From Escherichia coli (GTDB taxonomy: Bacteria > Pseudomonadota > Gammaproteobacteria > Enterobacterales > Enterobacteriaceae): a DNA stretch of 64,000 bases. Location of the stretch: NCBI RefSeq assembly GCF_050920415.1, contig NZ_CP169309.1; one strand, 5' to 3'. Position 1 is the first letter of the stretch, and each line of letters starts with the position of its first letter. Made by a program: the position numbers and the translations under genes. This document shows, piece by piece, positions 50,007-51,113 of this stretch. The notes below the pieces were generated by a model, which was not told the DNA's origin, did not search any database, and saw only the letters and a program-made list of their open reading frames with translations.

Positions 50007-50040
50007 ACGAACGAAGCAGTCAGACGACTGCTTCGTTCGT
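50007..50040. terminator. Bidirectional terminator-like hairpin between lysU and ghoT
   Basis: Perfect 15-bp inverted repeat ACGAACGAAGCAGTC-AGAC-GACTGCTTCGTTCGT between convergent genes; no strong T-run. Confidence 0.45.
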
Positions 50041-50113
50041 CGTTCCACAAATCCAGTTTCGAGGAGAGACGCTTCGTTTCAAGATAACCAGCGGGTCCAC
50101 TCAACTACAGCTC

Positions 50114-50314: not shown

Positions 50315-50611
50315 CTACTTGTAAAACTGACGGAAATAGTCATCAACGGTCATAATGTTGAGGTCAAAATCAATATCCGGTAAGTCTAAGCATTTGAGCC
50401 TGATTAAATCTTCGATTTCACTTGCGGCTAACGATGTCGTTATTGCGAAGGAATTTTCATTCAATTGTCGTGGTATCCCATATTCATCAGCCACGATAGA
50501 GGAGAAATTCATATCATACATCAATGATCTTAACCTTAAGAACACTGAGGAATAAGATGATGGATAATCAAAAGAAACAACATAAGTATTGAACTTGTTT
50601 TTACCTTCCAT
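50315..50611 (-). CDS. ghoS: Type V antitoxin GhoS (endoribonuclease)
   Basis: 98-aa ORF MEGKNKFNTYVVSFDYPSSYSSVFLRLRSLMYDMNFSS... Confidence 0.88.
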   Translation of the reverse strand: MEGKNKFNTYVVSFDYPSSYSSVFLRLRSLMYDMNFSSIVADEYGIPRQLNENSFAITTSLAASEIEDLIRLKCLDLPDIDFDLNIMTVDDYFRQFYK

Positions 50612-50840
50612 AATATGACTCCTATCAATATTAAAACGATCTGGGGACGCACAACTTATTAACCCCGATCGATGATTCTCATATAGGAGATATTCTTTTT
50701 TTTTTGCTCAGTAAAGGGGATGACTTGGGACAAGAAAACGCTCTCTCTGACCATTCTTTGTGCATCCCCCTACCCTTCAGATTCTCTCCTGCATCACACC
50801 GCGGAGAGCATGAAAAATATCGTGACTCTGTACTCTCCCA

Positions 50841-51113
50841 TCAACTGCGAATATCATCATACTCCCGCGTTTTATCAAATTCGTGTTTCGCAAATGGACA
50901 TAATGGGATAATTTTTCGTTTTTCCCGACGCATTTTTTCCACGACTTTCGCAACCAGCTGTTTACCAATCCCCTGCCCTTTCAGGCTTTCATCGACATCG
51001 GTATGTTCGATAATCGCTAAATTCTTGCCGGTCGGCACAAAGACAATTTCAGCAATTTGCTTGCCCTGTTCGTCATTAATGTAAAATTTATTGTGGCCTT
51101 CGCGTATTTCCAT
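50841..51113 (-). CDS. yjdJ: GNAT-family N-acetyltransferase YjdJ
   Basis: 90-aa ORF with GNAT acetyl-CoA motif ([16 protein letters not shown]). Confidence 0.85.

Follow-up and report, generated by a model that had tools for sequence, protein, structure and literature searches.

The nested inverted repeats directly upstream of ghoS in Escherichia coli are, with a probability that we put at roughly 60%, an incidental feature of a transcribed leader and not a dedicated regulatory element. The proximal arm of the outer repeat is the ghoS ribosome-binding site, to whose Shine-Dalgarno (SD) sequence the distal arm would be complementary by chance, and the inner repeat would fold as a small GGGG/CCCC hairpin within the spacer that separates the outer arms. 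Two derived substitutions in the rare allele carried by the window (the 64-kb stretch of DNA analysed here, to which all positions refer unless K-12 is named) would each lengthen the inner stem by one base pair. The mRNA of this allele is predicted to fold into a nested hairpin that hides the SD and may damp GhoS translation somewhat, and for K-12 and most E. coli another fold is predicted, in which the SD would be largely open. Any effect on translation is probably small and not under selection; at most, the folding models point to a weak, strain-specific damper of GhoS translation.

Locus and gene content

The stretch studied is the E. coli lysU / ghoT / ghoS / yjdJ / yjdI / dcuS region. The ORF at 50315..50611 on the minus strand (start codon ATG at 50611..50609, minus strand) encodes a 98-aa product with 99% identity to annotated GhoS (PF11080), the type V antitoxin endoribonuclease. 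The RefSeq annotation of identical DNA agrees with this assignment, and the order yjdJ - ghoS - ghoT is annotated on identical DNA in RefSeq genomes. The minus strand of the window is equivalent to the K-12 MG1655 plus strand, on which ghoS occupies 4352584-4352880, yjdJ ends at 4352357 and the nested repeats fall at 4352507-4352576. To our knowledge, ghoST is the only well-studied type V toxin-antitoxin (TA) system. Its regulation as described so far consists of cleavage of the ghoT mRNA by GhoS, and of cleavage of the ghoS part of the transcript by MqsR.

A scan of genome contigs for GhoS outside E. coli, E. whittamii and two further Escherichia genomes returned one tiny contaminant contig only. 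The distribution of GhoS is almost restricted to Escherichia, and for this reason a deep phylogenetic covariation test of the ghoS leader is not possible.

Two further features of the locus were observed. For the yjdJ region (window ~50841-51113), a tagB/tagC autotransporter genomic island is reported between yjdI and ghoS (yjdK), with yjdJ sequence duplicated, in some B2 strains (PMC6592367). This island and its duplicated yjdJ probably account for those genomes in which the yjdJ part of our query matched 2-3 times. In the convergent gap between lysU and ghoT (window ~50010-50043), a perfect inverted repeat of ~15 bp, ACGAACGAAGCAGTC / GACTGCTTCGTTCGT, is a candidate bidirectional terminator with no clear T-run.

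Identity of the outer arms: the ghoS Shine-Dalgarno and its complement

Both repeats described in the initial annotation are present. On the plus strand, the outer 7-bp repeat is exact to the base (CTCCTAT at 50619-50625 and ATAGGAG at 50683-50689; 100% complementary), and the inner imperfect 8-bp repeat pairs GATCTGGGG (50638-50646) with CCCCGATC (50663-50670), leaving one bulged base. The arms are spaced 57 nt apart in the outer repeat and 16 nt apart in the inner repeat. The coding-strand sequence up to the ghoS start reads AUAGGAG-UCAUAUU-AUG. The ghoS SD, AGGAG (50623..50619), lies inside the proximal outer arm AUAGGAG (50619..50625, minus strand), 7 nt from the AUG, and this arm, as read from the sequence, is the SD plus two bases; it is invariant in 13/13 Escherichia alleles. 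The distal outer arm CUCCUAU (50683..50689, minus strand), which a repeat search placed 58 nt upstream, thus constitutes an anti-SD.

Outer pairing is predicted to reach further than previously noted. AAUAU (50694..50690, minus strand), an extension of the distal arm found in MFE structures and with RNAduplex, pairs in the predicted fold with the invariant AUAUU (50616..50612, minus strand) of the SD-to-AUG spacer. The extended outer helix of the predicted MFE fold comprises 12 bp with a 2-nt bulge and spans the SD together with the whole spacer. The inner hairpin was delineated using sequence, fold and allele alignment, with a 5' arm GAUCGGGG (AAUCGGGG in K-12) at 50663..50670 and a 3' arm CCCCAGAUC at 50638..50646, both on the minus strand. 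Only in the window allele does the 5' arm contain a GATC. The 3' arm contains the bulged A; its CCCCAG is invariant and its last bases vary. Just upstream of the distal arm is an A-run (50696..50705, minus strand), which is A10 here and ranges from A8 to A11 among strains. The MFE fold is a nested hairpin on either strand, at -22.8 kcal/mol for the coding strand and -20.2 kcal/mol for the opposite strand.

Probable transcription of the ghoS leader and an upstream hairpin

A promoter and terminator scan of the 229-nt intergenic region found none on either strand. On the ghoS strand, the one sigma-70-like match upstream of the gene is TTGATA-17-GATATT, located inside the 3' end of yjdJ (50850..50878, minus strand), a weak match by consensus only. 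Adams et al. 2021 (PMC7815308) report a Term-seq RNA 3' end at MG1655 4352488 (+), 96 nt before the ghoS ATG, which was seen in two of three conditions and follows ...CATCCCCTTTACT. In that study, such 3' ends were kept only with a mapped upstream transcription start (PMC7815308). Since the ghoS 3' end passed this filter, transcription would begin over 116 nt before the ghoS ATG, and the match at 50850..50878 is a candidate for the implied start site. The nested repeats lie downstream of this start, and hence probably sit in the transcribed ghoS 5' UTR and not in a promoter. The initial annotation had offered an operator or a 5'-UTR structure. Its 5'-UTR location stands, the region being probably transcribed and the proximal arm being the SD; the operator finds no support, as there is no sigma-70-like promoter within 96 nt before ghoS and the arms are wide and unconserved.

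The K-12 3' end at 4352488 maps to the equivalent of 50710. This is the end of T1, a terminator-like hairpin followed by UUUACU (50710..50774, minus strand), which was defined using Term-seq, a single-sequence fold and RNAalifold. RNAalifold yields 24 pairs for T1, with one compensatory change (U-A to G-C in the K-12 haplotype) alongside five one-sided changes in which pairing is preserved. T1 is better supported than the nested repeats, and if the ghoS leader has a real RNA element, T1 is the likelier of the two; it may be an attenuator or a yjdJ terminator within the ghoS leader. A 12-nt long-range complementarity on the coding strand, GGGGAUGCACAA / UUGUGCGUCCCC (window 50643-50654 and 50758-50769), links the upstream hairpin, by its 5' arm, to the 3' arm of the inner hairpin. 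The full 12 bp occur only in the window allele; in every other sampled allele a G-to-T change leaves 9 contiguous bp.

On the opposite strand, a strong Rho termination region is reported at K-12 4352446 (-), with a Rho score of 11 and p 3e-50 (PMC7815308). It corresponds to window ~50750 on the plus strand. As this region of Rho-dependent termination is antisense to ghoS, antisense transcripts would cross the region of the repeats, presumably from the lysU side.

Predicted accessibility and variation among Escherichia alleles

With the leader taken from position -95, the predicted probability that the SD is unpaired was 0.02 for the window allele, 0.70 for K-12 and 0.01-0.70 across the alleles tested. 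When the leader was taken from the candidate start in yjdJ, the corresponding values were 0.03, 0.63 and 0.01-0.78, and predicted SD accessibility is thus independent of the assumed leader start. It did not change between 20 and 42 C, and an RNA thermometer was rejected as no temperature-dependent opening of the SD is predicted in that range. Because modelled accessibility varies so widely among close relatives, it is unlikely to be under selection.

The leader is polymorphic to an unusual degree, and the window allele is rare: identity to the window over 121 nt is >=99% in 2 of 5336 matching complete E. coli genomes, and 90-95% in 4792 of them. We aligned 13 distinct alleles, comprising the window itself, nine further E. 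coli, E. whittamii and two further Escherichia genomes (cryptic-clade). Eleven of the 12 outer-helix pairs never vary and the twelfth is broken once, by an A->C change in the otherwise invariant distal arm of strain SCPM. Being invariant, the outer pairs are uninformative on structure, for or against, and the 3' side of the helix is constrained regardless, as ribosome-binding site. The distal arm and AAUAU are nearly invariant across E. coli, E. whittamii and the two cryptic-clade genomes, with flanks about equally conserved.

The inner helix is eroded, with 77.7% of cells paired and its two basal pairs disrupted in 8/13 and 11/13 alleles. Its GGGG arm is altered without compensation in two lineages, SCPM and E1V33 (CGAA and GTGG), and one inner pair is found as G-C, G-U and A-U among the 13 alleles. 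Where the window has GATC...GATC, K-12 has AATC...GAGC, with the loss of two pairs and both Dam sites. A site controlled by Dam methylation was rejected, given that both GATC are absent from K-12 and most alleles (AATC and GAGC/GAGT). Pairing in the proposed structure exceeded the shuffle control on 0/5 measures over the 13 alleles, 341-492 of 500 shuffles scoring as high. Applied to the same 13 alleles, RNAalifold chose another register with 0 compensatory pairs and a covariation term of +0.51.

Larger changes also occur in the leader. In one lineage, Escherichia sp. MOD1-EC7003, the loop of the inner hairpin holds a 53-nt insertion (L003:2401-2453, equivalent to window ~50660). The insert belongs to a dispersed intergenic repeat, of which E. 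coli genomes have 6 copies at the median and 12 at most; we take it to resemble the ends of an ERIC/IRU element. In E. coli strain Z226-6, IS5 directly follows TTTACTGAG (L024:~439 onward, equivalent to window ~50707); it sits between the upstream hairpin and the A-run and splits yjdJ from any remaining ghoS. An upstream ORF of 31 aa (50659-50754), which runs through the A-run, was rejected, as the variation in A-run length from 8 to 11 shifts its frame among strains.

Frequency of the repeat pattern by chance

The 301 nt surrounding the repeats contain 21 inverted pairs of at least 6 nt. We compared the pattern with dinucleotide-preserving shuffles of the 229-nt intergenic region and with natural tiles of 229 nt from the 64-kb window. 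A perfect 7-nt inverted repeat within 110 nt was found in both sets (56% of shuffles, 66% of natural tiles). For the nested arrangement, defined as a perfect 7-nt repeat around 8 bp with at most one bulge, the figures were 2.2% of shuffles versus 7.0% of natural tiles, the latter corresponding to ~39 sites in the 64 kb. Pairing of the ribosome-binding region with the 76 nt upstream reaches -10.5 kcal/mol (RNAduplex), a value equalled by 21.6% of 2000 shuffles and by 45% of 60 other window ORFs paired with their own leaders. The repeat pattern is no rarer than chance and its complementarity is at chance level; it is what an AT-rich leader with a Shine-Dalgarno gives by chance. The MFE z-score of the window allele on the coding strand was -1.56 over 101 nt. 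For the 92-nt core, it was -2.5 (P ~0.012) in the window allele versus -0.6 in K-12.

ghoST loci with other upstream regions

Nested repeats were not found in any of four other ghoST locus types. In the locus with a 92% identical GhoS, the junction falls at the SD itself and no anti-SD is present (L025:558-600). CTCCT was not found upstream in the locus with an 84% identical GhoS. The loci with 77% and 65% identical GhoS keep the upstream block GGGG..CAAAGAATGG and the SD-proximal bases, and are without ~76 nt bearing the distal arm and the inner 5' arm. By alignment, this ~76-nt segment (50665..50740, minus strand) contains the 3' half of T1, the A-run, the distal arm and the inner 5' arm, and it occurs in the yjdJ-linked type only. 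It is missing from L011 and L013, which retain both flanks, and is edged by 4 nt of CGTT/GGTT microhomology. Our 121-nt query matched a median of 1 and a maximum of 2 places per genome in 5336 genomes. The segment was rejected as a current mobile element or dispersed repeat (REP, ERIC, MITE), being single-copy in E. coli.

The GGGG..CAAAGAATGG.. block upstream of ghoS is located at 50745-50775 in the window, L011:2412-2445 and L013:~915-950, and is retained where the upstream gene is an amino-acid permease and not yjdJ. This conservation in divergent loci suggests that it belongs to the ghoST module, possibly as a promoter or leader element. An ATG inside the L011 block is in frame with ghoS. 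The ghoST module is found behind at least five unrelated upstream contexts (L025, L008, L011 and L013 among them). Because the L025 junction falls right at the Shine-Dalgarno, the comparison suggests that ghoST moves or recombines as a compact cassette beside lysU.

Discussion

A translational-control role for the repeats appears doubtful. In this proposal, 50683-50694 would pair with the ghoS ribosome-binding region in the 5' UTR; just as doubtful is its further part, in which the inner hairpin would bring the arms together and the fold would set the output of GhoS antitoxin versus GhoT toxin. In its support, the region is probably transcribed, the predicted 12-bp helix with its 2-nt bulge covers SD and spacer, and each outer pair is intact in 12-13 of 13 alleles. 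The SD is predicted to be 97-98% paired in the window allele, and the alternative register of K-12-type alleles still pairs the AUG region with the distal segment. However, the 13 alleles display no covariation, the complementarity is no greater than chance would give, natural alleles span an up to 70-fold range of predicted occlusion, and four other ghoST locus types are without the repeats. On these grounds, and with predicted accessibility running from 0.01 to 0.78, the earlier suggestion that the repeats control the TA operon is not upheld. Further points against a control hairpin are that no temperature response is predicted from 20 to 42 C and that no Rfam family matches: at a permissive threshold, Rfam returned only E>1 eukaryotic or viral noise, none of it over 50612-50700. 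A literature search found no paper on the ghoS leader, and the yjdK/yjdO entry of a riboswitch screen was set aside, as it concerns a region 5.5 kb away. Several of our results weigh against the incidental reading that we prefer. The nested fold is clearly favoured in the window allele (z -2.5, P ~0.012), whose two derived substitutions both add to the inner stem, one inner pair occurs in G-C, G-U and A-U form, and the distal arm and AAUAU are near-invariant, although their flanks are about as well conserved; invariance cannot disprove function. A two-part post-transcriptional gate, in which T1 (-96) would limit read-through and the anti-RBS stem would limit GhoS translation, we regard as rather unlikely. 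If it did exist, alleles with SD accessibility from 0.01 to 0.78 would have strain-specific antitoxin-to-toxin set-points.

Other explanations place the origin or function of the repeats at the level of DNA or of the opposite strand. It is quite unlikely that they are by-products of an insertion of the ~76-nt segment into an ancestral leader (or of its deletion from one), a scenario which is compatible with an incidental leader. The absence of ~50665-50740 from L011 and L013 with both flanks kept, as well as the 4-nt end microhomology, would fit such an event, but the segment is single-copy in E. coli and hence no recognisable mobile element, and the event is not polarisable with the genomes at hand. 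We consider it very unlikely that the repeats serve as a terminator or stabilising hairpin of an antisense RNA, for transcripts running from lysU across ghoT and ghoS. The plus strand does also give a nested hairpin (-20.2 kcal/mol, z -1.9), a C plus T10 follows the extended stem (50695-50705, plus strand), and antisense transcription is present, as evidenced by the Rho region at K-12 4352446 (-). Yet the terminator scan found none, the AU-rich stem base and 57-nt interior are unlike intrinsic terminators, the T-run varies from 8 to 11 among strains, no Term-seq 3' end falls on that strand from K-12 4352400 to 4352599, and termination there is Rho-dependent. Operators usually take the form of inverted repeats, through which type II TA operons typically regulate themselves, and the inner arms of the window allele hold two GATC sites. 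Nevertheless, a DNA operator, with a transcription factor on the palindromic arms repressing or activating ghoST, is extremely unlikely, because the arms are 57 and 16 nt apart, unlike dimeric operator half-sites, because neither the inner arms nor the GATC sites are conserved within E. coli, and because GhoS is reported to have no part in transcriptional control of ghoST (PMC4344625). In addition, the arms overlap no promoter-like site, the inferred transcription start lying more than 116 nt upstream of the ATG, and the interval between the arms tolerates a 53-nt repeat insertion.

Were the stem a genuine control on GhoS translation, ghoST regulation would gain a further, cis-acting layer, and strains would differ in how tightly the toxin is restrained. 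On present evidence the stem matters little, and ghoST modules function with a number of unrelated leaders. Of more use is a side result of the analysis, the conserved hairpin directly upstream, to which an RNA 3' end has been mapped.

Type II TA operators of the mqsRA type resemble the ghoS region in having inverted repeats upstream of a TA operon, the mqsRA palindromes being 5'-AACCT(N)3AGGTT. However, half-sites of type II operators are a few nt apart, in contrast to the 57 and 16 nt between the ghoS arms, and the ghoS repeats do not overlap a promoter and have unconserved arms. Unlike type II antitoxins, GhoS is an RNase and is reported not to regulate transcription (PMC4344625).

In SD-sequestering leader hairpins, an upstream anti-SD is present in the same transcript, and the ghoS window allele is probably similar in this respect, with both SD and spacer predicted to be paired. 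Examples of such hairpins are the ROSE/fourU thermometers and the RBS-hiding fold-back elements of hok-type type I toxin mRNAs. The ghoS leader differs from these in that its fold is unconserved, shows no covariation and pairs at chance level; no melting is predicted from 20 to 42 C, Rfam gave no match, and other ghoST loci are without it. The ghoS leader does belong to the catalogue of premature 3' ends of Adams et al. 2021 (PMC7815308), with an end at -96 that follows a conserved hairpin. The catalogued element is T1 (50710-50774), which lies upstream of the nested repeats and excludes them.
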